A stretch of DNA of 62,641 nt, the filler included, from Hausera hauseri (taxonomy: Eukaryota), in NCBI GenBank assembly GCA_046269625.1. It is 11 parts of 11 records of this genome, joined end to end, with 100 filler letters (N's around TTAATTAATTAA, not from the genome) between each part and the next. Parts side by side here need not be neighbours in the genome. Positions count along the whole stretch, not along the records: positions 4,425 to 10,476 come from JBJURY010147645.1; 10 more parts are not named here. One strand, 5' to 3'. Numbering within the stretch: position 1 is the first letter of the stretch; every line of letters starts with the position of its first letter. Under the pieces are notes generated by a model. It was not told the origin of the DNA. It worked only from the letters and a program-made list of their open reading frames with translations, and made no database searches. Below, piece after piece: positions 1-28,608 of the stretch. The position numbers and the translations under genes were made by a program.

Positions 1-2888
1 TCGGCGTTCAATGAGTTAGAAAAGGCAGGAATTATAAGAAGATCAAAGTCAACTTGGATCTCACCTCTACACGCAGTACCCAAGAAGGACGGTACCTACA
101 GGCCCTGTGGCAATTATCGCCTGTTGAACACCATTACGGTAATTGACGCATATCCACTACCGCTCATTAGAGATATCCTACACAAACTCAATGCCAACAC
201 CATATTTTCATCCATCGATCTTCATAAAGCCTACCATCATATTTCTGTCTCACCTGCTGACATACCAAAAACAGCTGTGACAACACCTTTTAGTCATTTT
301 GAGTATGTTTTCATGCCGTTTGGTCTATGTAGTGCCTCTCAAACATTTCAAAGGCATATAGACACAATTCTCGCTGGTTTAAACTTTGCATTTCCTTACA
401 TAGATGACATTCTCATAGCTTCCTCATCCCCTAAACAACATTCTGAGTACTTACACATACTTTTTTAACGTCTCCACCAAAATAATTTAGAAGTAAATTT
501 CGCCAATTGTTTCTTTTTCCAACACAAGATTTATTTCCTTGGTCATGTCATCACCAAATTTGGCCACTCTCCTCAGTAAGACCGCATAACTCAGCTTAAA
601 AACATCCAATTGCCACAAACAACAACTGAAATGCTCTCTTTTCTTGGCACACTACACTTTGTTTACAAATATGTGCCACATTGCTCTGAGTTAACCGCAC
701 CTTTTGCCACTTTATCGTCCGGAAAGAAGAAACAACTAATTCACTGGACTCCCGAACGTGTCAATCAGTTTGACCATTTACGTGAAAGTTTAAAAACTGT
801 GCAAATTCTAGCCTACCCCAAACCTGACGCAGAGCTAATATTAACCGCAGATGCCTCTACCACAGCAGTCGGCGCAATACTGCATCAAATTTCTAATGGC
901 GTCAACTAGCCTTTGGAATTTTATTCTCGGAAACTTACACCACCAGAAAGTCGTTATTCAACTTTCGACAGAAAGCGCTTAGCTATAGTATTAGCTCTAA
1001 AACACTTCTCGCATTTGTTAATTGCCAGGTCTTTCACGATCCAAACTGACCAAAAACCTGTCATTCACATCATGGATATGAAAACTCCTTCATCTCGACA
1101 ACAATGTCACATACTGTACTTGTCGATATTCAATTTTAAAATGGTACATATTTCAGGCACTGACAATTTGGTTGCCGATTTTTAGTCGAGATTAGTTAAT
1201 ATCATTGGAGTCACTCCCATTTTCTCAAAAGCAGTGCTTCAGCAAAATGTACCAGCACAGGAAATTCTTAAGTCTTTTAAATGGCACCAAATCATCGACG
1301 GAATAGCCTATGACACCTCTAAATCCGGTAATCACAAATCAATTTTGTCTCCAACTTTGCAGAAAACTGCATTTCATGAAGTACGTTCTCTCCATCATCC
1401 GGGTGCCAAAGCAACTTTTCGGCTGCTGCAACGTAGCGTTATATGACCTTCGATAAGATCAGACGTACAGGCGTGGGTTAAGGAATGCATGGCATGTCAA
1501 AAATGCAAAACTCACAAGCATCTAAAGCCACCATTATATCACTTCTCCTGTACGTCGCGTTTTGAATCCGTTCATACAGACCTAGTCGACCCTCTTTGCC
1601 CAGACAACGGTCATCAATTCATACTCACCATGATGGACCGTTCTTTTCGATGGCCAGAAGCCGTTCCATTACGTTCCACCAACACAGACACTATCGCTGA
1701 GATCTTCATCAAAACGTGGATCAGCAGATTTGGCTCCCCTCGCTTCATAATCACAGACCGAGGTCCACAATTTAAGTCAAATCTTTTTACGTCCTTGGTC
1801 AATCGTTTGGGAATTAAACACACACACCTCTCCATATCACCCCAAGTGAACGGTTTACTAGAAAGATTCCACCGCACAATGTAAACCTCACTTAAAATCC
1901 TAACTGAATCACACAGCAACTGGACAGCTGTTCTATCTGTTGTCTTGCTTGGCTGGCGAAACACATCCTCCATCACCACGGGTTGTGCACCACGGAAGCA
2001 TTGTTTGGAACACCAATTCGAGCACTTTTTGAGTTAACGGATCTGCACGATACACCAACAGACAAACTGATTCGAAATACCCAAGATCACTTTGTTACAC
2101 TAAAGAAAAAAATAGTAAATTATACCAAATGAAACACATCAAGTGACTTATAAACTTCCAAGTTTGTTTTGCTTCAAAACCCTTCACTTGGTGGTTTTCA
2201 ACTACAATACGTTGGGCCATTCAAACTTTTTTCTTTATCGTCTCACACAGCTACAATTCTCAAAAGCGGCAAAGAACAAACTGTTCACATCACCAATCTA
2301 AAACCTGCCTTTTTCGTAGATGACTCTCCTCATGATACACAAAACAACCCCAATTCCACTGGCACTTTTCTCGATTCTTTTGTTTCTACTCCGTTCCCTG
2401 CTAAATCAACAAATCATCAACCACCACCTGGTCCAATTCCCACTTTTCTTTCTAATGTTTCCACCCCTACTTCCATTTCTCTACCTGTCGCCTGTCACCT
2501 CTCATCTTCTACAACTAACGTTCCATCCACCACTTCACATTCATTACTTTCTGATTCTCTCGTCTCAATTCCTACTGCCCTTCTCTCATCTGCCAACTCT
2601 ACTTAACATTCTCCACTTTCTACTCCTCACTCGTCATTTTCCATTCCGCACTCCTTACCTGCTTCATCCACTTCTTCAATTAATCGTTCGTCACAACTCT
2701 CACTTCCCTCAACCAAAATAATACCAAACAATCAAGCCAGAAATACGACAAAGCTCTCACTCCTACGTACATCTCCGCAAATGAACACACAACAGAAAAA
2801 CAGAACACGCAGAGTTATTTTCAGTAAGTACAGTAGAGAGCAATATATCGACAAAGTACAACGCCTAGTATACACAAAAATCGATTAG
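1..2888 (+). pseudogene. pol: Ty3/Gypsy pol, decayed (RT-RNase H-integrase plus Ser/Thr/Pro-rich tail), family A copy 1
   Basis: RT motifs YPLP, IDLHKAYH, MPFGL, YIDDIL; RNase H TADAS and YSTFDRK; integrase HHPG/CMAC, VHTDLV, ITDRG, LERFHR, YVGPF. Many stops and frameshifts. Confidence 0.95.
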
Positions 2889-2962
2889 AACAAAAAACCT
2901 ATTTCCTTTTGCGATTTTCTGTACATATTTTCGCTCTCTACTTTAGTGCCATTTTATGCCAC

Positions 2963-2990
2963 GGGTGGGGGAGGGGTAATGTGGTGCCGC
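2963..2990 (+). promoter_or_regulatory. Polypurine tract and start of the 3' LTR (TGT at 2980) of Gypsy family A copy 1
   Basis: CCACGGGTGGGGGAGGGGTAA-TGTGG lies just after the pol stop. The related copy has CCACGGGAGAGGGTAT-TGTTG at 56198-56214 on the minus strand. Confidence 0.8.
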
Positions 2991-4324
2991 CGTTGCGGGC
3001 GCCGCCACCACTGACGACAAGCGTTATTTGTAGCCTGATTACGTAATCTAGAAAGTTCTTTTCATTTAGCCGTATCATACTTTTGTATTCTTGCATTAGC
3101 TTAATTTTTTAGTTGCTTATTCATATACGGGTGTAAACTGATGCGCAATATTCGAAATAGGTTCAGCTTCAGTTTTCAAATCAATGAGAAAAAAAATTAA
3201 TTAATCAATTTCACTCAACAAATGAAATATTTTACTTGCTTTAAATTATTTGTCGAATTGCAAAAATTTATGACAAATTTAACCAATGCATTTTCCAATT
3301 GTTCCCGGGTGACGTTATTCCGTAATTTCGCATTTAACAAAAAATAGTTTCAGTAATTTCAGGCTCAGAGTGTAAATAGTAGACAAGTGGGGAAATGCGT
3401 TATAAAACCGATTTACCCGACCTATGATTTTTCTTAAAAAACCTGAATGAAAAATTGTGTTTAAATTCACAATGAATGTCTCTTTTGAGAATTCAAAAAC
3501 GCCATATTTTTTTCTTTACGTTGTTTCCGGCAAATAAATCTTCAGCCACACTTTTGATTTCGTTTTTCCCAGAACCAATTTTTTATACAGTGAAAGTTTT
3601 CTTTGGAATGATACAGATGTTGAGCTTCAAATCCCCCTCGACGATTTATGATGGCAGTATTGGGAAGAATGCGGCCCTTTTCGGGAGTGAGTTAGCTCTT
3701 CCAATAAATCCTGGTACAATAATTTTATTCTCCAAAATTAAACCAGTTAAGGTACCACACAATGCCAACAAAGTAAATAATAATTTGTATCAGAAGAACA
3801 ACAGAAATTTACACCCAGTAGTTGCACATTATTTTAATCAAACTATCAAATGCGTATGAAAATGTTTGCAGTCGCGCAAATTGTTGATAGCATGAAGAAA
3901 GTTATTCCGCATGTTATGATACTAATTTTCCGTACAAATATTTTATTCACATTGAAAAGTGCACTTTACTTTATTTGGTGTAGTTGAGATTAACCGGAAC
4001 TATTTGAAACAATTGTAACAAATACACAATATTTCACACTACTTACAAATTATTCAGTAGTTGTTTAGTCAGAAATGTTTGTGACGAAAGATTAAAAAAT
4101 AAGACTGAATGAAATGACACAAAATATGTTTCGTGACAACTATTTATTTCCAATCCTTTATACTTTGGAAAGAACAGAAGGTATTAAGTACCTGAACAAT
4201 AAAATATACGAAGTACACCCACCGGCGACTGGTGAGGTCATGGAAAACGATCGATGACGTACCAGTTCTGCAACAAACGGAAAACGAAAAGGAAAATATC
4301 AAAAGGCGCAAGACAATTAATCAA

Positions 4325-4424: not shown

Positions 4425-4664
4425 CCGATTGTCTTCCAATATTCCGACTGATTCAATAAAAATAGAATCCAGAAAATCCTGCAATGTATTTTGTCCTGTT
4501 GTAGGTAGTACAAATTTTCGCATCCGACTTTTAAAAGCATCGCCATCAGGATGTTTCTGACTTCTATGTTTAACTGCCCCGATCAAAGCGATACTAGGTC
4601 GCTTTCGGCCTCCTGTTTGTACTACTGCACTAGTTGATAGTTTATTGAAGAATTTCCTAGCCAT
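4425..4664 (-). pseudogene. Possible N-terminal fragment of a Polinton-type pPolB gene, cut by the contig end
   Basis: QTGG...DAFKSRMRKFVL...LQDFLD resembles N-terminal regions of invertebrate Polinton-like polymerases. No catalytic motif is visible. Confidence 0.35.
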
Positions 4665-4805
4665 CTCCAGTGCGTCCTTTTGAATCTGAAAAATTGCCTT
4701 TTTTTTCTTTTGATAGAAAGCAGAGAGGTGGTGTCCATGCTGCTTAAAAAATTTGAATAAGAAACTCCTGAAACAGTTTCACATAAAGGACATATATAAT
4801 AATTA

Positions 4806-5504
4806 TGTTAGTAGTTGAAGGTGGGCCCTATTCAACACCCAACTATAACAATATCGAAACTCAAATTTGAACAATAATTATAAACAGATAAGTTTTAACG
4901 TTCTCGTTAGAATGTTTGTACTAGTTTATGATGCTTGTACTGCGTGCTGTGCCTTGCGTAGTTTAGAAATTCTCGACTTAACTATAACGTTTAATACTAT
5001 TTTAATCCTTAGTGTAGTACAAGTCCCTCGTAAGGAGCGACGAAAAACTATAATTTTGAAAAGAAACTTTAGTAACACAAATAACAATACCGATAATCAA
5101 CAGTGAATAATTTTCACGGTCCAAATTCAAAAAACAATCAAGTCCTTTTCCGTATCAATCGATTCATAAAACGTTTAGAATTCTATGCAGTTATACACTG
5201 TACACTGTTTCATTGCGTTTATATAGTAGATTGCATGCAGGATTAGTAATAGAGATTTCTAATTCTTTCTAATTTTTCTCAGTTTCATATTGATTAATTT
5301 CATTAATTGTAGGCAGAAGTTATTTTCTCGACATTTAGTGTGCGGAATTCTAGCAAGTTTTGTCTTTTTTCTGAATAATCCAAGTAATTAATTGATTTTA
5401 ATTGCAATGGTGTATTGTTTCTCTTTCGGTTTTCGCTTTTAGTTTCACTTTCGTTTTCAATTTACTGTACATATACAATTTGTGATTCTCAGCTCTCTAT
5501 AACA
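4806..5504 (-). repeat. 3' LTR (about 700 bp) of the cargo-carrying Gypsy element
   Basis: On the minus strand it begins TGTTATA right after the PPT and ends CTAACA at 4806 (TGTTA/TAACA terminal inverted repeat). It is non-coding and followed by a TA-rich flank. The end at 4806 is less certain. Confidence 0.65.
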
Positions 5505-5516
5505 TTTTTCCTCCCT
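5505..5516 (-). promoter_or_regulatory. Polypurine tract AGGGAGGAAAAA
   Basis: A 12-nt pure purine run directly abutting TGT on the same strand as the integrase. Confidence 0.8.
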
Positions 5517-5697
5517 GAACGGCACTCTCGAATGTGCCCATGGCGTCAGAAGAGGTGCCACGTAACCGGTTCATTTGTCCACGTAGGTCCACTTCCGAAT
5601 CCGATTCTTTTTCTGGTGATTGCGGGTCAAAGTGGTAGGATGTAGTGGGTTTTTGGGGCAATATCTCCACTACCTTTTTATTTTCTCCATTGGCGTA

Positions 5698-6817
5698 CTA
5701 TCTCAGTCTTGTGGCCTCAACTCTACATACGAGGCAGGTCGTCTTCCAATTTTTCAGGGTTCACGTTTCTAAACAGTACCGGCAGTACTTGTGGGTACAG
5801 TCTTTATTATCCAACACCACGAATCCTTGGTATAGATTGGCATCACAAACAGGGCACTCTTTCTTCTACCCTCTGTCTATGTCTACGAGGTTTTCGTCGA
5901 CTTCTATTCGTTCAAATACTGGTTCCTTTTTATTTTGATATAGGTATCCATATAGTCGTTTTTGTTTTGGGTCTATCGAGCTTTTCTTGGTGTCATCTGA
6001 CACGGTGACTAACGTCCATTCAACGATTTCTTGTTGGTCTAAATCTGGTATATCGGTTTTCTTATATTGCCTTTTTAATTGTATTCGGACTTGGGTATCT
6101 ACCGGAATGGTTAATCTATTGGTACCGTTTTTCGACTGGAATATTGGGGTTAAGTACTTGCCAATAGTTATGTCCTCCCGAGCATATCCATTCCCACTTA
6201 CGATTCTCCTAGGAACAGTAGATACGTAGAATATGGTTTCCTTGATCTTGCCTTTGCTGTAATATTCGGCCATGACGGGCATTCTGGTATATTCCTTTAC
6301 TTGGCCAAATTCTGTGACTGATCGGTTCATCTTCTTCCCAATTCATCCGAAGAACGTTTACTTCTGTCTTACGGAGCTTTGTATCAGCAGTTCTCATCTT
6401 GGTCTCGTCGGAATTTTCGGCTTCCTCCCCTTTGGGGTTCTCCTTAGATCCGTTTGCTTATTCGTTGAGCGTGGGACGGCCAGCACATGGTTTCATTTCT
6501 TCGCCCAGGTTCTTACTGGTTTTACTTCTATTCTTGCTAATGTACTCCAAAAAGGAAGTTTTTGTCTTTTGTCCTCTTGGAACTTCTCTGATATTCGGTT
6601 TCAGACTTTCTGTTGCTCTTTTGGGGACCATTTCCATTTCGTTTCGAGCTTGGCTGGTCGATGGTTTATGTTGGTTGCAGGCCGTTCTAACTGAGCTGTG
6701 GTGAACGGTCACTTGACATCTGTTGTGTCCTTGAGGCTCAACTTGTCTATATATTGGGTATTCGCTAAATCCTTTTCGGAATTTTTGTATTAAAATTCTT
6801 GGATTGTTGTTTGACAT
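5698..6817 (-). pseudogene. Gypsy cargo ORF-C: N-terminal dsRNA-binding-motif-like domain (6602-6805) and C-terminal C3HC4 RING finger (5722-5856); premature stops and one frameshift
   Basis: Frames 6458-6820 and 6209-6397 are in register across one TAA, then shift into 5866-6330. Reading through the TAG at 5866 gives KKECPVCDANLYQGFVVLDNKDCTHKYCRYCLET*TLKNWKTTCLVCR, with all eight RING-HC ligands. The N-terminus NPRILIQ...YPIYRQVEPQGHNRCQVTV...ARNEMEMVPKRATESL (68 aa) fits the dsRBD pattern. Confidence 0.75.
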
Positions 6818-7896
6818 CACATTTTGTGTAGGGTTCCTAGGCTTCCACTCATGTTCCCATCGTAGTGAGGCATAAATATTTTTATAAGCCTCGTTCGTTG
6901 ACTTGCTGACATCAATTTAGGAAATCTGAATCGTTCACCATTTATTGTTTCTAGCATCATTTTGAACTGTGATTTACGTGATGCTGACGGAAGGCGGCAT
7001 CCTCTTTTCCTCATTAAGGTGTTTTCTACTTGGCTTACAACCGCTGGATTTCGACTCAGTTCACGAATTCCGGCTATATACTCTTGTCTAACTCCTAGTC
7101 TTTCTAACATTTCGTGTACTCGAAATCCGGTTACAATGCATCCATATAAGCAATGGCTTATATCTTCCCGGATTTCCAAGAAATCTTTCCCTTTTTCGAA
7201 TTGTACTTTCGTAATTCCGGTGACATCGGGAAAGGTATCTTTCACCCTAGTTCTAGGTGCAATTATTTTTTTTATAAGTTCTTCCTCGTTGGTACTTCGG
7301 ATAGAGACTTTAATTGGTGTATACCATCCGTCATCCTTTTCTCCGTAGTTCACGGCTAATATTCGAGTGTTCCGGCCGTCTGGAACTAGCTTGTAAGATT
7401 CTCCATTCTGTTCTATCTCATTTTCTGAAGGCTTTTGTATGCATAGTAATGGTGGTAGCGGTCTCACTACTTTTGTCCGCCAGGTCATTTCGCACATGAG
7501 TTTGGTTGGAAGTTCTGCGATTCTGAATTCCAAAGCATAGTTCATAAGATTATAGCAACATAATTCATAAGTGCTAAATTTCCCTTGTTGTTTCTTTTGT
7601 GTGCTCCAGGATTGTCCTACGATCCTGTATTGAATTTCTCCATCAGCAACATGTATGTACAATTACTGATGTGTCGGTTTATATGTAATAATATCTTTCA
7701 AGAGGTATGCTCGTGCATGTCTGGGGCGATATAAGCTTCTAGATAGTGGCTTGAGGACTGTTACATGTTGCAGGAAATCGTCGATGTCATGACTGGAGTT
7801 GATTGCTGAATTTTTCGCCTTTTCGGCTATACTTACTCTGCTAAAATAAAAATAAAGGTCAATCCTAAGACAGATCATCGTTTTGAAACAAAACAT
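6817..7896 (-). pseudogene. Gypsy cargo ORF-B, unknown protein (281-aa open segment 6817-7662 plus in-frame upstream segment 7663-7896)
   Basis: Long sense-strand ORF inside the element. It contains YELCCYNLMNYALEF, like the CC motifs of ORF-A, and has a possible frameshifted signal peptide (MFCFKTMIC/LGLTFIFILA). Confidence 0.6.
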
Positions 7897-7935
7897 TTTC
7901 TCTGTCTGATGACAGGATAACCTGATCTGTAATTG

Positions 7936-9249
7936 TCAGGTTATGCTATCATAAAGTCCGTCTCGGTACCCTTTTACCCGTTTATCTCCTTTTCGATTTT
8001 CACCGCGTTTATTACAGTTTTTGGAAACTAGGAAAATCATCCCCGTTAATGTGACAAGAACGAAAATTGACAAACTAAATATAGCTATTATCGGTAAATT
8101 ATTTGGCTCAATAGAACCCTTCGTGGTAAACGCATTTTGAGTACTAAGATCTTTTTACTGCATTACCTCAATTTTGTTGTCGAGTTCGTACTGTGAAAGT
8201 TTTAGGGTTTTTACCTTTCGCGGTGATTCTTATTATATAGTTATACTCCAGTCGTAATGATTTGCATTCGGTTTCCTGACTATTCTTAGGATTATAATTT
8301 GGTGTGCAGGGTGCGACATTCAATTTTGACGTCTTGCTTTAACGTTTCTTCAGCGTAAAATAGAATTTTATTACTGCCAAAATCTTAACTGGTATGCTCC
8401 CTAGTTCTTTTTCAAGGATTTCATCCGAAGTGATGATCGCAGTAGTGAGAGTTGTACTTGGAACAGTGGACGGTTGTATCGTAGTGGTTGGAAACGGAGC
8501 TTCCTTATTCCGATTTTTGGGCGGTATCCTCGTAAGTACTCGGTTCTTTAGGGTAAGTGTTGTACAGATCGAACTGTAACTGGTAGTTGTGTCCTAACTG
8601 TAATCTACAGCACACAGTAAGCCGTCGTCGTGCGATATAACAGTTCTCCGGAATAGGAACCGAGGCGTTCAATGGTATAAATCGGACAGAAATTTGTCTG
8701 TCTCCTGGCACTTCTATTTTGGTCTCAATTTGAATACGTTGGTTTTTTAAGTGTGGAAATTCCAATAATGTTATAATTTAAGAGCCTTTTAAATGGGTCA
8801 GTATTTTGGGTTATCTCATCCGTCTTGGTTCGATTCGTGTCATTTAGTTGATGCATTCTTATTAAGAATTCAGTAATTATATAGGCTTGGGCTCCGGGCT
8901 GATTATAATAGAGCATTTGAAATTTGTATCGGTATGTTCGTCCGAAATCTAAATTACAACATATCCTATGAGCTTTGTACGGAAAATTGCATGTTTTCAT
9001 CGTGGATCTAGTTACGAATATTATTTTAGATTTTACATGACTCTGAATAGGTTCACTTGCTTTAAACCATGCAAATGGTTTGCTCCAATTCATATCGTAT
9101 ATTCTAAGTAACTGTAAGTTTTGGATATCCTTTTGTCTTGCCGCATATTGTAGTTTTTTGGTTTGGGTTATCGACCTTGTCTTTGGTATATACGAAGCGA
9201 TTAACGATAAGGCGGGGACTATTTGTACATACGATATTGGTCTAGTCAC
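7936..9249 (-). pseudogene. Gypsy cargo ORF-A: env-position type I membrane protein (repeated CC-x-L-x-x-G-x-x-Y units, Thr-rich stalk, TM 8026-8091, short cytoplasmic tail)
   Basis: Manual translation across frameshifts gives ICCNLDFGRTYRYKF, VCCRLQLGHNYQLQF, PTTTIQPSTVPSTTLTT, ECKSLRLEYNYIIRIT, then IIAIFSLSIFVLVTLTGMIFLV followed by SKNCNKRGENRKGDKRVKGYRDGLYDSIT*. Confidence 0.65.
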
Positions 9250-10476
9250 TATCGACGACGTTCTTTTCTTTGCTCATATAGTCCAATTTTGCTTTTCCCG
9301 AACGCAGATTATAGCGCTTACTTGGCCTTATTTCCGTTTTGACTACTCTGTGGATTGATATGACTTCTCCTTGCCATTTTTGTTGATATATACTGTGCTT
9401 GGTGTGGTTTTGGTAACTTCATAAGGTTCTCTACCTGTTCTGGTGAGTTTAAGAGATGTGCCCTTCTTTGCTACTGGGTAATGTACATAAACCCAATTTC
9501 CTGGTTCTAGGTTGTGTGGTTTAGCCTTGTCATATTGCCTTTTATATTGTTCTTGGTATCCTCTGGATAATTCCTTGGCTATTTCCCAACACTTGTGTAA
9601 TCTCAATTGTAATACTTCGACAAAATTTTGCTCCAAGTCTTCCGTTTTTGTTGTATATGGAATCAATCCTAAATCTGTAGGTAGTATAGCTTCTCTACCG
9701 TACATCATGAAAAACGGGGTGAAACCTGTTGCAGGATGTGGGGTAGTATTAATGGCAAACTGTGTACCTTCCAAGAAATCGTCCCAATCTTTCTGGTCTT
9801 TCGCGACTACTGTCGATAAGATTCGTATAACTGTCGCGTTCATTTGTTCAACTAGTCCGTTATATTGGGGATGATAAGCTGTTGTGGTTAGTCGCTCAAT
9901 TTCGAAAATTTTAGTAATTTTTTCGAACAGTTCGCTCGTAAAGTTTCTCCCTCGGTCTGTCAAAATTTGTTCAGGCGGTCCATATCTGAAAATAATTTTC
10001 CGGACTACTACTACTGCCAGGGTTTCCGCCTTTTGGTCTACTAATGCTATAAGCTCGACGAAATGAATCAATCGGTCTACACAGGTCAAAATATATTTAT
10101 TGCTTTTGTGAGTCGTAAGTAACGGTCCTACAATATCCATGGACATTGCCTGCATTGGTCTATCAGGCACATTGATGGGTTTAAGTTTGGCCATGTAGTT
10201 TTTCACTTTTCTTTGTTTGGTTGCGCATACTTCACAAGCATTCACCCAATTTCTCACGTCGATGTAAATGCTTGGCCAATAATATTTATATAATATTCTT
10301 TCCAATATCTTCTTCCACGACATGTGTCTGGGTAAGTATGAGTCGCGTTCGGCCATTAGTACTTCCGCACGTAATCCTTTTGGTATGATGACTAACTTTC
10401 GCCCCTTTCGTTCGTAGTATAACACATTTTCGTGATTCAAATCTCCTGCGACGCAGTATTTGTGACCATGTCGTCG
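9242..10476 (-). pseudogene. pol: Ty3/Gypsy integrase (pol 3' end, 5'-truncated by the contig end)
   Basis: Zn-finger remnant (RHMS...CEVC), SMDIVGP, LTDRG, YHPQYNGLVE, GREPY. The tail continues in a shifted frame as VISIHRV...RYNLRSGK...DSD*. Confidence 0.95.
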
Positions 10477-14737: not shown

Positions 14738-14940
14738 TTGACAGTGATTTGGCGTTGAGTAACGATATCCGAGATACATCGTCGATTTTTCTCAAAGGAA
14801 ATATGGCGAAAATTGTCAGTAAACATGGTGGAGAAACAGCAGCAGCAGTTTTGCTACCGGAAGGAGCTAAAGGCTACCTGACACTAAAGCTCAAAGGATT
14901 CAATGGGGAATGGAAAATGGGGAAGTTTATTATGATTTAA
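14738..14940 (+). CDS. 3' part of a conserved unknown ORF convergent on pPolB (copy 1), cut by the contig start
   Basis: LSNDIRDT..LKGNMAKIVS...GAKGYLTLKLKGF..WKMGKF matches the ORF at 32341-32863. Confidence 0.7.
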
Positions 14941-15220
14941 CTGACTTTGTGTGCTTGTAATTTTAGTTTTTCTCCAATCATTAAATAAATGTATTCGTGT
15001 TACATATTTTGTTTTCTCGTGCAAGGTTATTGTTTTCCTTTTACTTCTATCTTAATAATAGTAATAAGTTAAGTAAGCAACCGAAAACAAAACACAAGAC
15101 TAAACAAAATACGTTATTGAAATATAAAAAGCAATATACATCGGATAATTGTCAATGGTTGTCACAGTAACTGAACGGATTTGTCTGAACCGACAGAGCA
15201 CCGATTGTTCGGACGTGCGT

Positions 15221-18200
15221 TTATTTCAGTCGCCAATGTCCATACGCCCAACTCTTATTTCGCCCCACTCACTTTCGCTTATCATCGTTACATGACAAAG
15301 CCACTTTCGCACTAGTCAATTGTACAGTTGGTGCTCAATTGATCAGATCATCGTTTCAGACACCACAGCCACTGATTGTCCTCCTTCTGCTGCTGTTGCT
15401 TCTTCATATATACGGCAATAATGACCGCAATCGATTTCCGTCTGTCTCAGCTGGACTACTTTTGCTCGCATTTTCGCTCCACAGACAATCAGAAGACTGT
15501 GGCGCTTTGGGTATAGGAATATCCATTCCCGATACTGAACCCTGCCTTCACTTTCATCCTTAAAACAGCCGATTTTGTTGGTGGTCGCGCTGCTGTACAA
15601 CGGATAATCCGGTGTATAGTTGGACGTGTGCAGTAATCCATCTGACTGCATTTGCTGCAGTAGCTGTTCGCGATTGACTTTTATCAGCCGCAGGTAAAAA
15701 CTCTGTCACCGGCAATTATACTAATGTCACATCCGTCAAACATTTGCCGGTAACGTGCCAAATCGCGATACTGTAGCTCATACATCCGCAACTTGCTCAG
15801 GTCCAATACCACTTGTCCGATGTAACTTGGCCGGTCCGGAATGACTTCTTCTCTGTTTAACATTATCGCAACCAATCCATCGGAAATGTGCATTAACCGC
15901 CGAATCTGCGCCTTACCCGTGTATGTGACCAACCGCTTTTCGCTATTGCATAGTCGTACATTGAGCCGCTTTTTCAGATTCTCCACTGTTTTTCCGTACA
16001 GTGAATTGTTTTTCAGCTTGTAGTAGTCCTTTTCGATCTTTGTACAAGCTGCGGTTCCTTTCTCCGAATTTCCATCTATATACGCCTTGAATATGGGAGC
16101 CTGAGCAAATCGGATTGCACGATGCAGATGTGTGACGCGAACACCGAGCTGCATGTAGAACTGTGGCAGACGCCAATGGACCACGTAATTCAGCTTCGGT
16201 TCATGCGTAATGAGCAGTTTCTTCACTTTTGAGCCTGGCGAACATGGGTTAAATGGTGCGACCGGTAAATCGTCCAAAACGTCATGCAGCTCATCTGGTA
16301 CCATGAAATCCACCTCCATCAAGTATCCGACTGAGCCTATCATGTCTGCTCGTGGAAGATTAACCATTATGTCGTCCAGATCTTGTCTGTCGACAAACCA
16401 TTCAAATGAACCGTACGGCAAGGGTTGCAAAAGAGCCCAGCCATACAGGTTATTAATATCAATATACAGCAATGATGTGGTATCGGTAGCACTGACTTGA
16501 TGCTTGTTGACAAATGTCATGCCACTCAGAATACTAACATCAAACAGCCGGTACATTTTCGGGTCTTGCAGCAGCTCAATGTCTCGATCCAGTGACATTA
16601 GAGATGACGCCAAACTCATTCCCGGTATGGAATAAAAGTTGAGTGGCTCCAGCCTATCTTCAGCCAACGCTTTCGCTCGAAACGCTTGGAATACATTGGC
16701 AAATAAGTACACGTTCAGTTTAAGATATTGGAGCATGTATTTCAACATGTTTTTAAAGCCGAGTTCTATCCAACACATGTGCTTTCCGGTATTCATTCTC
16801 TGCGATACCTGTCCATCGCGGCTGTAATTCCTCTGATGTCCGGAGTCGCTCAAACGATGTAGCAAAGTCATATGGGAATATGCCTTTGCTGCGTGCAATA
16901 TGTGCGGGGAACTGCGTCAGTGCTATCGGCACATCCGGCAAGACATTTATCGGCTTTGCCAATGATTCATTAAGAAATTGCAATGAGTCAAGGAAACGTA
17001 CCTAGAACCGGTTTATACAAGCATACAGTGACAGATATTTCTCCATCATAGTCGGAATTATGGATGGTTCCCAGTGCGGAAATCCGTCTATTGCCCATTT
17101 CAACATATGCTGACAATCATAACTCCTGAAGTTATGAAATACCATCGGTAAGAATGGCCGCACACGCCATGCCAAATTACATAAATTACATGCTGCTCCG
17201 AGATATCGACCAGTAAAATGATCGTGATCCGGTACGAGCCGTTCCTGTGCATCGAACAGTAATATTTTGTGGCACAGGTAACATTCATCTGTGACTACAA
17301 ACATCAGGCGTTCATCTTCATCTGTCCACATCAAGGGTTTATTGCTATTTCTACTGTACCAAGGTGTGATTTCAGTTTCCACTATGGTTTGAAACTGCTG
17401 CAAGAAATCGCGTACACAATTCAATCCGTGGAAAACATAATATTGAGGTTGACCTGTGACTTTTATTGGGACAACCAACATACCGACGGTGATTGGAACA
17501 TGTTTTTGGTCATATATGTTGTGCCGTGGTAAGATAGCTTCTATATCGACATATACTACATATAGCTGACTGTCTGTTTTTGACCAATCAATGAATCTTA
17601 GCGCCTTTTTGACGGGCATTACATACATTGTGGTTCCTGACAAATTTTGTCTGCACAGATTCATATGTTTCTCCCATGTTGTTTCCGACCTGAATGCACG
17701 AAGACACAGGACACAATTTACACTGTATCCGTTTTTGGACGAAATGGTCATGCTTCATGTTCAGTAGTCTGTCCAAATTTGTCACTGAAACGTAATGGTA
17801 CTTTTCTTTTTGTTCCAGTAGCAACGAATTTACTGAGCGGCCATTTTGGTTCCGACTACGATAGATTATATCCACATGATAATTTTTGTAAATTTCATCC
17901 GTCGGTATTTCTACAATTGTGTTATACCGGAACACGCTGATTGCCAGTATCGGATTATGCTGCTCAAAACCTGAATAAGTTTCAGTTTCATTGGCATCCA
18001 GCTTTCATCGAAATCCAATTGAGAAAAATATTTCTGATACTGTTTTGGACGAAATGCACTGTCTGTCCACTTCGTCATACTTCAATACTGTCATAATACT
18101 GCAAAAAACAGTATTCATCGTTAGTATTTTTTTACATTCAATATCGCCAGAGACTGCTTCAGAGCTGCAGGTGTCGGTATGAATGATCGTCAAGACAAAT

Positions 18201-18705
18201 ATATTGTCATTCGACTTTGTTATGATAAAGCCGAGAGTGACAATCTTTACAATTCGCCATCCACTACCCTTTCCGTGTAGTTGGCAATTTTCTCGAGCTT
18301 TACGCCAATCACAGCGATAAAATCCTCGGTATATGGTACAGATCGATGTGACAGGTACCATTGTTTCCTGTCGCCTTGCACGTTTTCGAATTCTGGAAGT
18401 GCATAATACTGCACTTTGCGGTGGTGGTGTTGGAATTTGTCAATTTCAGATTCCAACCGGTTTCGCAGAATTGATGGAATGTCTCAATTGCGTTGTTGTT
18501 GTCGCTGACATGTTCACTTTTATATCCACGTACGATTTCTTCAGATCATACTTGAAAGTAATGCGTGATTCCTCCCCCTGTTGCTGCTCCTTCTGCCGTT
18601 TTTGATTTCTGTTGTTTTGAAAGTATTCGTCAATGCTTGTTGATGCCTGACGTTTCCTATTTGTTGACGGATTACTGCTGCTGCTGATGCTTTTGCTGCG
18701 TCCAT
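15221..18705 (-). pseudogene. Polinton/Adintovirus-type protein-primed family B DNA polymerase, copy 1 (frameshifted)
   Basis: GSGW, VVYVDIEAIL, DHDHFTGRYLGAACNLCN, FHNFRSYD, KGIFPY, YIDINNLYG (motif A), KLKNNSLYGK (motif B), IAGD (damaged motif C), IGCFKDE, DDKR...AYGHW. Confidence 0.93.
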
Positions 18706-19116
18706 TAATATTTGTTTTTTCGACCGCTTAAACTGGTTTAAGTGGTCATGGTGCTAATTATAAAATTGTTCATAGTTGATTTGATCATCAGCTATAGAAC
18801 AACCGGGACATACAGGCCCGTTTACTGTGCACCGTTGTGGTGTCATTGTATTGCTCCATTGCACTATGGCAACACCAACGTCGTGCACTGTACTTGTACA
18901 GTACCTTGGGTACATGGGACAATGCACTAGAATCACCTTCGACCGTGTAAACGGTCCGAGATGATGCTTGTGCATCTCATAACAATCGGGGTACGGGCAT
19001 TGGGTTAAAATATTACACGTCGAACACAGATATGCGGCCATTCCAACGTTGTAATATTTCGCTACCTGATGGTGGCACTGTTCTGCCTCCTCATGTATGC
19101 GAGAGACGCAATACAT
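18706..19116 (-). CDS. Cys/His-rich small ORF immediately upstream of pPolB (copy 1)
   Basis: MYCVSRIH..C...CSTC...CPYPDC...HKHHLGPF...HCP.Y..C...CPGC is conserved with 28217-28608. One premature TAG lies near the end. Confidence 0.75.
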
Positions 19117-19661
19117 GTGATATTAATTACATTTCTAAATTTAAATAATTAATATTTAGAATAGATTAAAATTATAAATAAAATAAATTAAAATACAAAC
19201 TCGTAAAATTAAACACTAAACATAACCCAATTGCTTTACTCTGTTATAAACGTTTGTTCCACATGCTTCTACTACTACAATTAATACTACCAATCAACTG
19301 AAACAGTACATTAAAAGTGAGATTCAGAAACTGACCGATGACATTTTGACCGGACATGTGTTCGATGTAGTTTTTGTGTGAACTTACAGAAACGAGAATA
19401 ATGAGCAAGTGAGAATATATTAAATTGATAGTCAGTTCTCTTCGTAAAACGTATCGAAGATGAAATGAGACGAAAACGACAATGATGTATTAATTTCATC
19501 ATTGGACTTGTATTTACTGCTTCACTTTGTATTGTAATTAAAAAGTTGATTGACCGTATTTAACCACATTTGTATTTTATATATATATATATATAATTTC
19601 GCTACGTGTTTGTTTTTATCTATTAATGCAATTTATTTTGTGTGTTCAAGCTACATTACAG

Positions 19662-19669
19662 TATAAATA
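19662..19669 (+). promoter_or_regulatory. Putative TATA box
   Basis: TATAAATA about 30 nt upstream of ATG 19699. Confidence 0.45.
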
Positions 19670-19698
19670 CTTGTGCTTCTTTCACATAAGATTATACA

Positions 19699-20046
19699 AT
19701 GTCTCACTTGATACACTCATTCGACGGTCTCAGGAACCACCTGCACAATCTCGATCGGCCTTTGGACAATGCTCGGTATTTGCCTCCTGAAGAGTTACTC
19801 CTACTTGCTGAACAGAATTGGAGGGCACGAGAACCCTACTTACGCCATATGAAGCAGGTTGCTAGTGATACGGAATTTTTATTCCGTAAGATTTTTCGTA
19901 CATGGAAAATGGCTCATTGTTATGCGTTGGACGATAATCCTCGTCAAGTACGATTTATAACCTATTTTGTCACACATGGTGGCGGTGGTAGTCAGGCAGA
20001 TTACATTCCTACGTGGCAGTCAGCAGATGAAATTTGCATAAAGTAA
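19699..20046 (+). CDS. Orphan ORF (115 aa) divergent from the pPolB cassette
   Basis: ATG start, higher GC than the AT-rich flanks, upstream TATA. It may continue via a frameshift to ...DHSPSSELANPCGLCNPI* near 20125. Confidence 0.5.
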   Translation: MSHLIHSFDGLRNHLHNLDRPLDNARYLPPEELLLLAEQNWRAREPYLRHMKQVASDTEFLFRKIFRTWKMAHCYALDDNPRQVRFITYFVTHGGGGSQADYIPTWQSADEICIK

Positions 20047-21599
20047 TATGATTACATCGTATGGTCTCGATCATTCTCCTTCTTCAGAATTGGCTAATCC
20101 CTGTGGTTTGTGTAATCCGATTTAGTAGCAGTAGTAATTGTAATTGTAATTGTACAATACAAAAATAATACTTTGTTTTCTCATTACTCAGAACGATGTA
20201 GGTGAGAAAAGGTGTTGTCCAAAAACTATATCAGAATATGTTTGTTATGGTCAGATAGGTGGGGAAATAGTGTTATCGGAAAACTAGGTCACAAAATTTT
20301 TGAAAAAAAATTGTTTTAACCAAAAAGGTGGGTAATAAAAAAAGAAATTTAATAAAATATTAAAATTAATAATGAAATGGTAATATAAAAATTATTAAAA
20401 AAAACTAACATTCACTGTGTGATCCATCTTCGGTTGTCGCAAATTTTCGAAATGATGATAAACTAAGTGCAATAGTATTTTATGTTTGTGTGTGTATGTG
20501 TAGTGGTCACAATTTATTGACTTACATTGCTGATTTTGAAAACAGTGCTTCCAAAAACAGTCGACTTCAAATGTCTAATACTTAGGGATTGAACTTTAGA
20601 CTAGAGCGAACAAATCATGAGAAATAATATGAAACTGCGAATAGATTGATTTTTATTGCTAACAGACGTTGGTAAATCTCCAAAAAGTAATTTGTAGTAG
20701 TGCATATAATTTGTAAATTTTAATGCTTTGAAAACGTATTATCTGAAAGTAATACCTTCAACAAACTCTACATTGAAAGAAAAAAGCCGACATAACAAAA
20801 TCGTTTTTATTATTAAATGCAATCCTGGAGCGTTACTAAAAGTTGCATATTATCTTACAAATCATGAGAAATAATATGATGTGACTTTTCATCACAATCA
20901 TTCTCATTGTGAGTAGTAGTACTCAATTATGAGCTCGTCGTCGTCGTAAAAAATAAAATTCACACGACGCATTTACAACGATGATGATAATTCTGACTTT
21001 TAACAATGCGTTTTCTCGTTCGTTCGTTCGATTGCATTTTTCAGCCGGATCCATTGATCTGATCGTGAGGCGGCTATAATTAGAAATTTCCCCCAACTTA
21101 TGGGCAATGTACTAGACCAATTTCCATCACCGGCAACTTGAACATTGGGAAATTTTACCCGTTTGAAATTTTCCCATCGATTTTCCCCAAGTTCCCATGG
21201 TCTGACCGACTTTCAACAGTGTCCATTGCAATCGCCAATATTGATTTACCCCTTGTACACATTTTCTCAGTGCTAGAAACATGTTTCGTGTTACAAGTGG
21301 AGCATTTCCTGTTTTGCTTCTTCCTCTTCTAGCGCCTCTCCCTTACATTTTTGTAAGTCGCACCTCTGTTAACTTTTGCTCACCTCGTCACGCGCTATTG
21401 ATATCACCTGGTCCGAACATCTTTGCTCGACCTCCTTTTCTGGGGAGGGGGTCGTGAGAAAATTTTAGTGAAGTGTTTAGAATAGCCAATCAGGTGGGGA
21501 AAAGTGGTCGGCAGACCAATTAGAAAAGAGCGGTGGACAGCTCACTTCCACCTACTAACGTTTATTAACATTTTAATCAATAATATAATATCCATTATA

Positions 21600-22765
21600 T
21601 CTTATTATTTAGATTGGGATACAAGAGGACTATTTTCAATATCCTTCATCTATTAATTGCAAAGTACAGAGTGAATAAGATAACAGTGAACAAAGTGCAT
21701 TTAAGACTGTATATGGTATGAGTTTCAGAAAGGAAGGTACGCGTCGGTTGCTTGTAAAAACTTATGAGACACGTTGGGAAGTGAAGTTGTAAATGTTCGG
21801 ACCTGCCAAAGATGATTTACCAAATTTCGTTCAGGTGATATCAGTCTCAAAGAAGATCGTCGATCTGGACAGCCACCGAAGATCGATATTGACATTTTGC
21901 AGTACATTTGGAGAGTAGCCCACATCTAACCACTAGATAAATTGCAAAGCAACTCGGAATCCACCATTGGACTGCTGAGGAACACATAAAACATCTTGGA
22001 TTTGTCTTGAAGCAGAGTATTTGGGTTCTGCACTATTTGACAGAAAAAAATTTATCGGATCGTGTGAGAATCTGTTTATCTCTGCCTATTAGACACAATG
22101 TGAAGCCGTTTTTGGACAAGCTCATTACGGGAGATGAAAAGTGGACCCTTTAACAGAATGTAAATAGAAAAAAAGTTTACTGCAAACCTGGAACATCCGC
22201 CACAATTATTTCAAAACCAGATCTTCATCAACGGAAAGTGATGCTTTGTTTGTGGTGGGATAGAAGAGGTCCAGTGTACTACGAGCTACTTAAACTGCGG
22301 CAAACCATCAATGCGAACACCTATTGTAACCAGCTTGATAAACTGAATGCAGCTATAAAGGAAAAGCGGCCAGTAGTAACGAACAGAAAAGGAATTTTGT
22401 TCCATAAAGATAATGCAAAACCATATACTGCAATGGTGACGCAACAAAAGTTGAATGAGCTTTGATGGGAAGTTCTTAGTCACCCACCATATTCACCTGA
22501 TATAACTTCATCAGATTACTATCTATTCCGATCACTTCAGAATTATCTGACGAGAAAACCTTTACTTCTTTCGAAGCTGTCTTCACGGCAGTCGCTGAAT
22601 ATTTTGGGTCAAAGGGTGAGAAATTCTATGCTAGGGGGTAGACAAGCTGTCTGACAGATGGCAATGAGTGGTTGCAAATAATGGATAATATATTATTGAT
22701 TAAAATGTAAATAAGCGTTATTAAAACTTATTCAAATATTTTATTTAAAATACGATAGAACTTTC
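21600..22765 (+). mobile_element. Mariner (DD34D) transposon, decayed; 3' TIR cut by the contig end
   Basis: SGQPPKID, WVLHYLT, ITGDEKW, MLCLWWD, FHKDNAKPY, HPPYSPDITSSDYYLF; stop at about 22703. Confidence 0.92.
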
Positions 22766-22865: not shown

Positions 22866-23690
22866 GCCAGAAATCAAATCAGTGACGAAAAGTCTTTGAC
22901 TGACTCGTTCAGAAATAGAATTAAGTTCCACGTTATCACTTTGGCCTTTATCTTCGGTCTTTTGGCGAAAGTTACACGGGGGTTTGCATTTGGTAGCTTT
23001 ATCGTTAAATTTTAAATGATACCAGCACGTGTTTGCTGTGGCATCATGTTTATTTCCAGGTCTTTTATTATACCGACATTTAAATTTGTTTGTTTTTCGT
23101 TCAGCGTTTTGTGCTTCTGAAAGTTTGTCGACCTTCTTGGTCAAAATTTGAACTTGTTTCTCCAATTTGTGTACGGGGGAAAGTGTGGCAGTGGATGCTA
23201 CGGCAGCTATATCGTTCTTATCTATAACATCAAAAACGTTATCCGCGATAGTCGCGAGATTAGAAAGGGGTTCAAAACTGGCTGCAACAACAGTCTGGAT
23301 TGATTGAGGTAAACGTCTCATCCATAATGTTTTAAGTATTTGTTCGTCCAGTCTGAAATTTCCCAATTCTTTTAATTCCCGTAGCAAGACAGAGGGTCTT
23401 TTATCCCCTAGCACTAGGTCACTAAAAAGTAGTTTAGTTTTCTGGACCTCTGATAATTCATACAACTCGAGCAATTTTTGTTTCAATGTAGTGTACGGAT
23501 CTTTATCAGGAGGTGTATAAATAATATCCGATACTTGACGTAAGTGTTCACTACTAATGGCAGCAATTAAATAGCTGAATTTAGTCTTTTCAGCTGTAAT
23601 TTCCGCGATTGAAAAGTTAGCTTCGAGTTGTGCGAAAAATAGTTTAACATTGCCCGTAGTGAAAACCGGGACCCTCATACCAACCTCCAT
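22866..23690 (-). CDS. gag: Ty3/Gypsy gag (family B), running in frame into the protease-proximal LFVTDLISG; cut by the contig end
   Basis: VPVF...FFAQLEANF...LGDKRPSVLLREL...LWMRRLP...CWYHLKFNDKATKCKPPCNF; no stop before the pol-matching sequence. Confidence 0.93.
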
Positions 23691-23883
23691 ATTGCCGAAA
23701 CCAATCCCTATGCTAACACACAAAAGGGGAAAACTAAGCAAAAAGGTTCAAAGTAAAGAAATACTTCAACCAACAAAAAACCAGCGTCACGCAGCGACCA
23801 GGAAAAATTGGCAAAATGATCCACTCACCACCAGACGACCATCAGTCTTGTTGTAATTTCAGGAGACATCTGAAGAAGCGTCG

Positions 23884-23901
23884 TTCCACCTCTAGTCACC
23901 A
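23884..23901 (-). promoter_or_regulatory. Primer-binding site (TGGTGACTAGAGG..., tRNA-Trp-like)
   Basis: TGGTGAC begins after a 1-nt spacer following the LTR-terminal CA. The tRNA identity is inferred from the TGGTGAC start only. Confidence 0.7.
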
Positions 23902-23902
23902 A

Positions 23903-24521
23903 TGTGGATGTGAACCCATGTCGTCGTCAATACTGTAATGTATCATTTTTGAAACACACATCAGGTTAACTCCCCAAGACTCTAGATCAGAAGGTTTTAC
24001 TTTGAAACTCACGAAACTTCGTCGTCGTAGTGGGAGTGAAAATATGCACTAAACCATTCTTAACAATTATATAATTTATTAAAAAATAAAAATTACACAA
24101 CAAATTAACAATGGCATCTTGCCTAAAAACAAAAGAAACTAGCTCGAACAGAGCGTAATTAAAGCCAAGACGGCTAACCACACGTGTATAATTGAAGCTG
24201 GTGAAATGCTCAAACACAGAGCCTTTATAGTAGTTCACCTCTAAAAAATTTGCATACGAAAATGTTCGTTACTTGGCAGGATGCAAATCCGCTTCATTAA
24301 ATCAGAACAAGCATGATCGCATTCAACTTTATGCTTGCGCATCCATGCTCTGACGTTTTTACCTGCTTTCACATAAAGGAGAAGATGAAACTGCACTGCC
24401 CTCTACAGTTGACTGTCTTCTTTTGCACTTCAGAGGTTCTGTTCCACTTTGCGTAAGTTCCTTTAGGCTGAAGAGGTTTATGCGCGGCGTGCGCCCTCTT
24501 TTATGTGGCTGAGCCGCCACA
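23903..24521 (-). repeat. Single LTR (619 bp) shared between upstream pol and downstream gag
   Basis: Starts TGTGG after the PPT GGAGGGGGG and ends CCACA before the PBS. Confidence 0.9.
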
Positions 24522-24539
24522 TCACCCCCCTCCAAGTCG

Positions 24540-27500: not shown

Positions 27501-27557
27501 TGGGTAGCAACTCACGTCGCTTCCTGAGTCAATAAGAAAGTGCAAGCCAGAAATCAA
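24540..27557 (-). CDS. pol: Ty3/Gypsy Pol, uninterrupted 1005 aa (protease-RT-RNase H-integrase)
   Basis: FLIDSGS, YPLP, IDLVKAY, YIDDIL, YTDCS, YDRELLA, HGLSHPG/CLQC, HIDLVGP, TSDQG, AERFHR, FDGPF, C-terminal HSGRRTRPPARY. Confidence 0.98.
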   Translation of the reverse strand: MISGLHFLIDSGSDVSCYPASRCTSLNKSEFTLAAANGTNIKTFGCKTLSLDFGLGSVCRWEFVIAEVRKPIIGADFLQNFGLIVNIRDKTLIQLSTANSTAGHIVKGFTPGIKSLTAPTKFEQLLSKFKTITKTDTFCTNKVKHDTKHFIKTCGPPIQARPRRLHPDQLKLAKAEFQKMLKLGICRPSRSNWASPLHMVSKRSGECRPTGDYRALNRITKQDKYPLPFLRDFTQQLYNATIFSKIDLVKAYFQIPVHEPDIPKTDVTTPFGLFEFPVMNFGLCGAAQSFQRFIDEVLRGLTFCFAYIDDILVASTSEQQHYEHLHTLFSRLQKYGLKINAEKSIFGVKQVEFLGHLVDKFGYRPLPDRVKCILDYELPVTVSDLRRFLGMINFYHIFLPKIAEIQAPLNKHLKGAKRKDKRKIEWTEEDKRAFKECKDSLAHSTLLHFPTPEAKLALYTDCSDHAMGAALHELVQNGARPLGFFSRKLTSTQQKYSTYDRELLAIYTAIVHFRYMLEARPFVVFTDHKPLTFAFEQKHDAKTPPRRLRQWEFISQFTTDIRYIPGKENHTADTLSRLGEITSVETIDWEQLADEQSRDPDLIGSMKRQSSSLVFKEISIPNSKKKLMCDTSTSRIRPLVPEKCRRDIFKSLHGLSHPGIKTTKRLIAERYVWPELRKDITKWTRACLQCQKTKVHKHTHSPYGEFEVPTGRFKHIHIDLVGPLPASQGFMYCLTIVDRFTRWPEAVPLENILAETVAKAFFSNWISRFGVPSRVTSDQGRQFESALFRALMILFGVKIHRTSPYNPKCNGMAERFHRPLKQALACHTTKSWVDALPIVLLGLRSAYREALKTSVAELVYGETITLPADFCEQTDLNQASPTFVQNLNGIMKEIRPTPGTRHNAPYIYIPKDLQSCTHVFVRRDALKKPLQAQFDGPFLVASRAKKTMTVIIRGDKRVISIDRIKPAFLLLDEEPTLPLQSSAKQEETTTHSGRRTRPPARYVAG

Positions 27558-28216
27558 ATCAGTGACGAAAAGTCTTTGACTGACTCGTTCAGAAATGGAA
27601 TTAAGTTTGTAAATAATATATGAAATATGCTTTGTATTTGTGTTTACATTCTTATCGATATACAGTGTCGTAGTTTGTTATTTATTTTAAATCGGTATTC
27701 AGAAGTTTATTTATTGTTTTTATTTCAATTAATCACACTGCGAGAAATATTTTATTGTTACCCCACGGGATCCAGAATTTGGGGCACTCGAGTGGGCCGA
27801 ACTAGACGTCCGCGACGCGTGGGTCAGTACCCGGCCACCTTGTTGTGGCATACAGTACGACCGTCGAGACGAATAAAAAGAAAGACGACAGAGGAGAAAG
27901 CGATCGCGCGAAACCCGTCATTCGGGGACTTAGAATCCTGATCCCAGTGGGGGGCGAAGAGCTTTGTTGCAGCTACAAAGTAATTCATTTCGTCTGAGTC
28001 GCTCCTTCACTATTTTTTAGCGATCTTTTCTGAAACAATTCGCGTACGAGTCGCGCCTTGCAGNNNNNNNNNNNNNNNNNNNNNNNNNNNNNNNNNNNNN
28101 NNNNNNNTTAATTAATTAANNNNNNNNNNNNNNNNNNNNNNNNNNNNNNNNNNNNNNNNNNNNAAAGTTAACATTTACTTTAATTTGTTTAAATTTAGAA
28201 ATGTTCACAATATCCC

Positions 28217-28608
28217 ATGTACTGCGTCTCTCGCATACATAAGGTGGATCAGTGCCATCAGGAGATGGCGAAATATTACAAAATTGGCACGGACACATAT
28301 GTGTGTCCAACGTGTGATGTTCCAACCCGCTGTCGGTATTCCGATTTTATTAGGTGCACAAGCATTATCTCGGACCGTTTACTAGGTCTAAGAAGATGAT
28401 AGTTGTGCATTGCCCCACATACCTGCGACACTGTGGTAGTAGTAGTAGAGTGCATGACGTTGATGGTTGCCATAGTGTAGTGAAGAAGTACTATGGCGCC
28501 ATAACGGTGCACGGTTGTTCTATAGTTGGTGAAATCAACAATGAACAATTCTACAACATTCAAAAGGACCACTTGAACCAGTTTCAGAGGTCCAAAAGGA
28601 AATGTTAA
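28217..28608 (+). pseudogene. Cys/His-rich small ORF upstream of pPolB (copy 2, frameshifted)
   Basis: MYCVSRIH...CPTC...HKHYLGPFTRSK...HCPTY...EQFYN, homologous to 18706-19116. Confidence 0.75.

Follow-up and report, generated by a model that had tools for sequence, protein, structure and literature searches.

A C3HC4 RING finger and an exonuclease-like ORF3 at the 3' end of a decayed gypsy-type retrotransposon copy

Do animal transposons themselves act against the silencing of their hosts? The region 5698..6817 studied here raises this question for one locus. An earlier note, made from the sequence alone, had read this region as a retrotransposon-encoded protein in which a double-stranded RNA-binding domain (dsRBD) is joined to a C3HC4 RING finger, and had proposed that it acts against host defence. 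What does the region belong to, which of its supposed domains are real, and what might they do?

The element and its relatives

The window, i.e., the whole stretch of 62,641 nucleotides of Hausera hauseri DNA that was analysed (assembly GCA_046269625.1), is made up of 11 contigs with one and the same N-linker spacer between them at ten places (4325–52634), so that contigs lying across a spacer are not genomic neighbours. The element under study lies on the minus strand of the 6,052-base contig 4425–10476. The element is a gypsy-type LTR retrotransposon present in many copies, here in a decayed copy whose 3' end is the region 5698..6817; its host is probably an animal. This copy is broken, real but dead. 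The minus-strand order is integrase, type I membrane protein, ORF3, RING-bearing region, polypurine tract and the likely LTR start at 5504, and the features are as follows:

9346..10476, minus strand: gypsy-type integrase with H2C2 zinc finger and rve core, truncated where the contig begins (Pfam)
7938..9273, minus strand: broken ORF of a type I membrane protein (hydropathy, frame path)
6820..7935, minus strand: ORF3, with an N-terminal domain of no assigned family and a predicted ISG20/REX4/SDN-like DEDDh exonuclease fold (ESM atlas, PDB, homology to the relative loci L001 and L002)
6815..6859, minus strand: overlap of the ORF3 stop with an ATG (TGATG), plus TGGGA; possible termination–reinitiation signal (sequence)
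6602..6817, minus strand: putative dsRBD-like stretch (4.7 bits with a custom profile; frame scores)
6325..6601, minus strand: linker rich in Lys and Glu that contains the 6460 stop, with a frame change near 6323 (frame model)
5869..6324, minus strand: stop-free 152-codon domain in the frame of the RING, no family assigned (frame favoured by about 50 nats)
5725..5856, minus strand: C3HC4 RING finger with an internal stop at 5763 and an upstream stop at 5868 (ligands, Pfam, PDB, shuffles)
5497..5700, minus strand: open C-terminal tail beyond the stop at 5700, reaching the polypurine tract and the LTR start (frame model; L002 alike)
5505..5516, minus strand: polypurine tract of 12 purines, then TG at 5504 (sequence; same layout in L002 at 5419–5433)
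4425..5504, minus strand: inferred 3' LTR, truncated where the contig ends (polypurine tract and TG; covered by other copies; the contig has no second LTR)

The Ty3/gypsy features present are an H2C2 and rve integrase that closes pol (Pfam Integrase_H2C2 3.9e-13, rve 2.3e-12) and a polypurine tract followed by an LTR starting with TG. The C-terminal tail of the integrase continues in another frame near 9390–9320. The proteins nearest to the integrase in a large protein collection are at most 41% identical to it. The contig begins at the integrase; in L001 and L002, RT_RNaseH sits upstream of the integrase (Pfam). A Ginger-type DNA transposon was also considered and was rejected because the nearest relatives carry RNase H upstream and show the polypurine-tract layout. 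Within the inferred LTR, a 118-codon open frame without a Pfam match was seen at 4425–4778 on the minus strand.

The element is a multi-copy family. Contigs of this family numbered 10,221 of 15.5 million in one sequencing run (X1) and 752 of 9.6 million in another (X2); most of them were 80–95% like the copy studied here, and 30/30 bins were covered in both runs. Since the window may itself derive from X1 or X2, these counts show copies and not independent occurrence.

A set of 82 relative loci was fetched by integrase alignment. L001 ranked first among them by integrase identity (39%) and L002 second (37%), and a quick tree of 99 rows placed the window integrase, on a long branch, with L001, L002 and L003 (SH-aLRT 95). 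In both L001 and L002, pol and a type I membrane protein form a single 1100-aa frame, intact at L001:2-3322 and L002:2-3304, which is followed by a further ORF; thus, the order pol–membrane–ORF3 is common to both. An RYxLR motif at the pol–membrane junction is shared by L001, L002 and the window element. This pol–membrane clade seems to be undescribed in the literature searched. The membrane ORF of the window has a hydrophobic start, an ectodomain, a Thr-rich stalk and a transmembrane helix at ~8103–8025, as judged by hydropathy. Pfam assigned no family to this ORF or to the ectodomains of L001 and L002, and found no envelope family in the window, L001 or L002, though the transmembrane helix is present. 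The FN3-like look of the membrane protein was noticed by eye alone and was not retained, as Pfam gave no match.

L002 extends from pol as far as a primer-site-like motif and what looks by eye like the start of gag. Its ORF3 is a single intact 709-aa frame (L002:3308-5434) that finishes on the polypurine tract, like the RING frame of the window, and it comprises the exonuclease-like fold, predicted to be dead, and a 90-aa C-terminal domain without an assigned family. The likely LTR of L002, ~1.8 kb long (5433–7240), contains a tandem array with a unit length of roughly 50 bases.

The RING finger and the stretch upstream of it

All eight RING ligands (8/8) are present in C3HC4 order and spacing, at 5856, 5847, 5799, 5793 (His), 5784, 5775, 5736 and 5727. 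The six frames of the whole window contain no other C3HC4 pattern, and shuffling of the segment produced none (0/500). Pfam RING families matched it with E values of 4e-4 to 6e-3, below their cut-offs, the scores being those of a decayed copy with stops read as X (zf-C3HC4_3, 20.5 bits vs. a cut-off of 27; zf-C3HC4, 16.9 vs. 21). The comparison with zf-C3HC4 suggested in the earlier note therefore gave a significant E value but a score under the cut-off. In the PDB, the best 30 of the 51 matches listed were all RING proteins (RING E3 ligases) with RNF4 at the top. The last Cys of the RING is directly followed by an Arg, which we take to be the linchpin residue. The eight ligands, the shuffles and the Pfam and PDB matches together confirmed that this retrotransposon carries a C3HC4 RING.

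The in-frame stop at 5763 lies four residues past the sixth ligand, and another stop, at 5868, lies just ahead of the domain. The codon letter at 5763 differs from that of the window in 15,754 of 15,897 of the summed depth in X1 (50 contigs) and in all the depth in X2 (8 contigs). As other copies carry another letter there, the internal stop is private to this copy. Two of the listed contigs span the RING. The RING frame has the codon pattern of the element and is joined in frame to an open stretch of 158 codons and to a 66-codon tail; the 152-codon domain (5869..6324) gave only a weak CAT match under the cut-off in Pfam. Beyond the stop at 5700, this frame remains open and favoured as far as 5499, where it meets the polypurine tract, and therefore the gene probably ends at 5499 rather than at 5698.

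The RING pattern was absent from the 82 fetched loci. The region 5698–6817 gave no alignment to L002, including its C-terminal half, so that a by-eye resemblance to this half was not supported. As L001 ends early in ORF3, the absence of the RING in relatives rests on one complete relative, L002. A search for protein homologs of the N-terminal frame starting at 6817 gave 0 of 79 candidates (lengths 159–508) and 0 in 1.84 billion representatives, and neither the homolog searches nor the 82 loci yielded an intact copy of the part that bears the RING.

The letters of the dsRBD layout are where the earlier note had placed them, but Pfam, the PDB, the ESM atlas and AlphaFold lent the domain no support. 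The stretch had no Pfam match up to an E value of 10 (HMMER filters on) and no dsRBD match in the PDB, and there was no usable match in the ESM atlas for the 119-aa N-terminal frame. A single-sequence AlphaFold model had a pTM of 0.20 with a hairpin at 32–49 only, and the fold search with this poor model reached a Z of 2.1 at best. The check on 6602–6805 was thus negative for Pfam dsrm and the PDB, and the model was too poor to judge the fold. The KKxA motif with which the last helix of a dsRBD begins, and which was seen in the profile alignment, is absent in this copy.

A custom dsRBD profile was also used, built from 30 proteobacterial RNase III domains and therefore narrow and bacterial. 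The stretch scored 4.7 bits with this profile, only positions 17–43 being aligned; P-x-Y and then Gly ahead of strand 2 is the sole part that the profile aligned. Scores as high were reached by 2 of 4,966 window tiles (at one place), by 11 of 2,000 shuffles and by 0 of 150 random stretches. Meanwhile, ten held-out true dsRBDs gave medians of 93, 67, 54, 44 and 21 bits at 0, 10, 15, 20 and 30% simulated decay, and no trial break read as X lifted the score of the stretch. The signal is weak: it is above the background and at the top of the decoys, and far under decayed true domains. Moreover, the rank of the stretch is inflated because it was picked by eye, and because of this choice and the bacterial profile the scores decide neither for nor against a diverged eukaryotic dsRBD. 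A dsRBD between the nuclease and the RING is conceivable, if doubtful, and is not needed for the best reading. The top decoy on the profile, at 37945–38140 on the plus strand (8.5 bits), has the last-helix motif in a short frame and is probably a chance match or a decayed gene piece.

The reading frames were followed with a codon-phase model trained on the element, in which the true frame won in 32 of 36 held-out windows. The model keeps to the frame of ORF3 until ~6860, to that of the ATG at 6817 until ~6323 and to that of the RING onward to ~5502, the change into the RING frame lying near 6323 (range 6354–6274). Between the dsRBD-like part and the RING there are stops at 6460 and 5868 and at least one frameshift. 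Of the fusion in one ORF that had been claimed, the RING is real, but since the frame of the N-terminal part is not that of the RING and two stops lie between them, a single dsRBD–RING ORF is something we infer. The terminal helix of the supposed layout is also affected. The ATG frame is ahead by 12 nats over 6817–6706, but over 6705–6602, in spite of being stop-free there, it falls behind the RING frame by 8.4 nats, so that the helix is not securely in frame; with cheaper switches, the model quits the ATG frame over 6705–6452. The last helix, which falls within 6705–6503, may thus be out of frame.

ORF3 and its junction with the following frame

The exonuclease-like fold of ORF3 lies at about 7370–6880, and the only internal stop of this ORF is at 7665. 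The ESM atlas returned RNase_T (0.91, 27/30 matches, recognition 2900). A profile of the window and L002 ORF3 proteins, searched against the PDB up to an E value of 10, matched three sequences in all, namely ISG20L2 (E 1.7e-4), ISG20 (0.023) and the plant small-RNA-degrading nuclease 1, SDN1 (0.024). The window ORF3 is 24% identical to that of L002 over 225 residues (E 2e-4) and matches that of L001 with an E value of 3e-4. Pfam gave no match on ORF3, RNase_T included, the AlphaFold model of ORF3 had a pLDDT of 34, and neither metagenome nor viral contigs yielded a locus for the ORF3 query. Close relatives of the L002 ORF3 are the proteins P0080–P0088; the nine proteins in the ORF3 alignment were all 78–100% identical to that of L002, and none was of the window's family.

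The alignments with SDN1 and ISG20L2, which cover Exo I and Exo II, showed that the acidic positions of both motifs are non-acidic in the window and in L002. These moderate matches point to an ISG20/REX4/SDN-like DEDDh exonuclease fold minus its catalytic acidic residues. Since both elements lack these residues and yet are only 24% identical, their loss looks old and the fold retained. ORF3 may thus be a dead nuclease kept for RNA binding, and it is a better supported RNA-binding candidate than the dsRBD-like stretch as well as the better supported novelty. L002 offers a natural intact model of the ORF3 nuclease domain.

The stop of ORF3 overlaps the next ATG as TGATG (6819–6815), and TGGGA lies 40 bases upstream (6859–6855); this overlap and an upstream TGGGA occur together at 3 of the 306 stop triplets on the minus strand. 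The RNA fold at the junction is not unusual (z −0.34). Termination–reinitiation is described for caliciviruses and influenza B, and for SART1 without the upstream element, in the available part of PMC5972666. Near the junction, 124/201 of the depth has the window's length, which together with TGATG and TGGGA is a point for two genes. The remaining 77/201 (7 contigs, X1) differ in length and are compatible with one continuous gene in those copies, and the single ORF3 frame of L002 is likewise a point for one gene. The change-point, placed with 99% upstream of the ORF3 stop, was dropped as proof of one long gene because the frames differ by only 1.2 nats over 6878–6820 and the in-register match to L002 scores +4 vs. 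−2. The odds between one gene and stop–start coupling of ORF3 with the ORF from 6817 are about even, and both forms may exist in the family.

Possible roles of the accessory unit

A counter-defence role is the most likely reading of the RING-bearing unit. Our tentative proposal, which we hold at somewhat less than an even chance, is that in working copies the accessory unit was an adaptor combining RNA binding with ubiquitin-ligase activity. Like Maelstrom and EXD1, the dead nuclease would still bind RNA 3' ends, and it would shield element RNA or soak up small RNAs. The RING, which the one complete relative (L002) lacks and which would for this reason have been added in this lineage, would bind E2 and ubiquitinate silencing or restriction factors, or host proteins met on RNA. 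Both parts would be made together, either as one protein or through stop–start coupling. The proposal of a dsRBD–RING protein directed against host defence thus keeps its RING and its favoured role, but its dsRBD is unconfirmed and the adjoining dead ISG20-like ORF3 had been missed. The analogies offered for that proposal included E3 recruitment by CrPV-1A and the RING ligases ICP0 and p28. A more elaborate version, in which a dead ISG20/SDN-like grip on RNA 3' ends, a dsRBD and an E3 ligase would join in destroying proteins of the Argonaute or Dicer pathway, seems to us quite unlikely.

The same parts could also serve the particle itself, leaving host defence untouched: the dead nuclease would cap or chaperone element RNA, and ubiquitination by the RING would mark Gag or the membrane protein fused to pol for sorting, budding or turnover. 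Arenavirus RING matrix proteins, for comparison, drive budding. We consider such housekeeping rather unlikely, though it deserves some weight: in this clade pol is coupled to a type I membrane protein, and L002 has the dead nuclease but no RING, so that the core role needs none. On the other hand, Pfam found no envelope family in the membrane ORF. The processing of element-RNA 3' ends was the first idea for the DEDDy ORFs of rotifers, according to the accessible part of PMC5408684.

In a further model, stop–start coupling yields a separate protein that starts at 6817, with a genuine dsRBD in its N-terminal part and the RING in its C-terminal part; like DCV-1A or IIV-6 340R with a ligase added, it would hide element dsRNA from Dicer and ubiquitinate RNAi factors. 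The rarity of the TGATG and TGGGA pair (3/306; the mechanism is treated in the available part of PMC5972666), the rank of the stretch (above 4964/4966 tiles, 1989/2000 shuffles and 150/150 random stretches), the lead of the ATG frame over 6817–6706 (+12 nats) and the share of junction depth with the window's length (124/201) speak for it. However, 4.7 bits are set against medians falling from 93 to 21 for true domains decayed by 0 to 30%; Pfam, PDB and ESM matches as well as KKxA are absent, the RING frame leads over 6705–6602 (+8.4 nats), and no break read as X raises the score. Such a protein is in our estimate unlikely. The chance is smaller still, and in fact slight, that the RING is a captured host fragment, a neutral cargo at the 3' end of the element. 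Its absence from L002, the lack of homologs found and the stops that flank it here (5868 and 5700) would fit a neutral cargo, but its frame also holds an open stretch of 158 codons and an open tail of 66 codons, the latter reaching the polypurine tract as the gene of L002 does, it fits the codon pattern of the element, and other copies lack the internal stop, two listed contigs spanning the RING.

ORF3 also resembles the DEDDh fold of the arenavirus nucleoprotein exonuclease (ESM 0.86, where values <0.9 are leads only). The arenavirus exonuclease is active, acts against dsRNA sensing and is paired with the RING protein Z. In contrast to it, ORF3 is without the catalytic residues. Among host proteins, PML (TRIM19) carries a RING. 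In the accessible part of PMC10123124, PML and Plex9 link a DEDDh exonuclease domain, the ubiquitin–proteasome system and a retroelement target, and PML-like DEDDh nucleases restrict retroelements; unlike the window element, they are host restriction factors with the opposite domain order (PMC10123124).

The rotifer elements Vesta and Juno likewise are gypsy-type and have at the 3' end an accessory ORF whose exonuclease fold is DnaQ-like; roles in RNA 3'-end handling or silencing were proposed for it (PMC5408684, available part). Their ORF3 is RNase D-like DEDDy with intact catalytic residues, and the word RING has 0 occurrences in the main text of that paper (PMC5408684, as available), whereas the ORF3 of the window element is ISG20/REX4/SDN-like, its catalytic residues are apparently gone, a RING follows and a membrane ORF stands between pol and ORF3. 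The inactive DEDD derivatives Maelstrom and EXD1, both piRNA proteins, keep RNA binding according to the accessible part of PMC5408684; they are likened to ORF3 by description, being host piRNA factors of other DEDD subfamilies without a RING. The planarian gypsy element Burro/GYPSM1 carries ubiquitination-related cargo (AIR1 'RING Zn-finger', MATH/TRAF, BIR) that is suspected of meddling with host systems (PMC6431247, in the part available). There, however, the cargo belongs to a 4,900-aa polyprotein or to upstream ORFs of a 30-kb element, and a 3' dead nuclease with a C3HC4 RING was not found in the available text (PMC6431247).

The function first proposed for the region is that of DCV-1A, IIV-6 340R and CrPV-1A, viral RNAi blockers at the dsRNA or Argonaute step (PMC4231766, in part). 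These have canonical dsRBDs or no RING, whereas the region studied here sits in a retrotransposon and its dsRBD is unconfirmed. Viral helicases borne by insect LINEs showed weak silencing suppression in plants (PMC6338049, available part). A 2019 review, as far as available, counts three cases of element-encoded anti-silencing, all in plants and none against piRNA or KRAB-ZFP control (PMC6719617), and a text search of a 2026 review gave no passage on element-encoded suppressors (PMC13269885). A dead ISG20-like domain with a RING in a gypsy element was not described among the papers that the literature searches listed. Should the more elaborate version with a dsRBD hold, an animal retrotransposon would encode a virus-style silencing suppressor, and the gypsy clade to which it belongs, in which a membrane protein is fused to pol, would be an undescribed one. 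In this clade a seemingly dead small-RNA-nuclease-like domain persists across distant elements and one lineage has an E3-type RING, which makes it a concrete candidate for counter-silencing; even without such a function the element extends the known gypsy cargo.

Several other observations were made on the window. A frame without introns at 43433–46984 (minus strand; 1,184 codons) matches PRP8 (best human 2253 bits, nematode 2162, green alga 2071, then fungi), and a more decayed PRP8-like frame lies just upstream, at 46930–47394. If all contigs come from one source, the ranking of these PRP8 matches makes an animal host probable. The stretches 14738–22765 and 28164–33183 are related decayed copies, 75–86% alike, that by eye look Polinton-like with a protein-primed family B DNA polymerase. 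Other gypsy-type gag/pol fragments occupy 1–4324, 22866–28063 and 52635–62641; tblastx matched them to the element contig at the integrase only. A 598-codon open frame of no assigned family was found at 35523–37316 on the minus strand, and the plus-strand segment 51731–52183 appears by eye to be a fragment of a mariner transposase.
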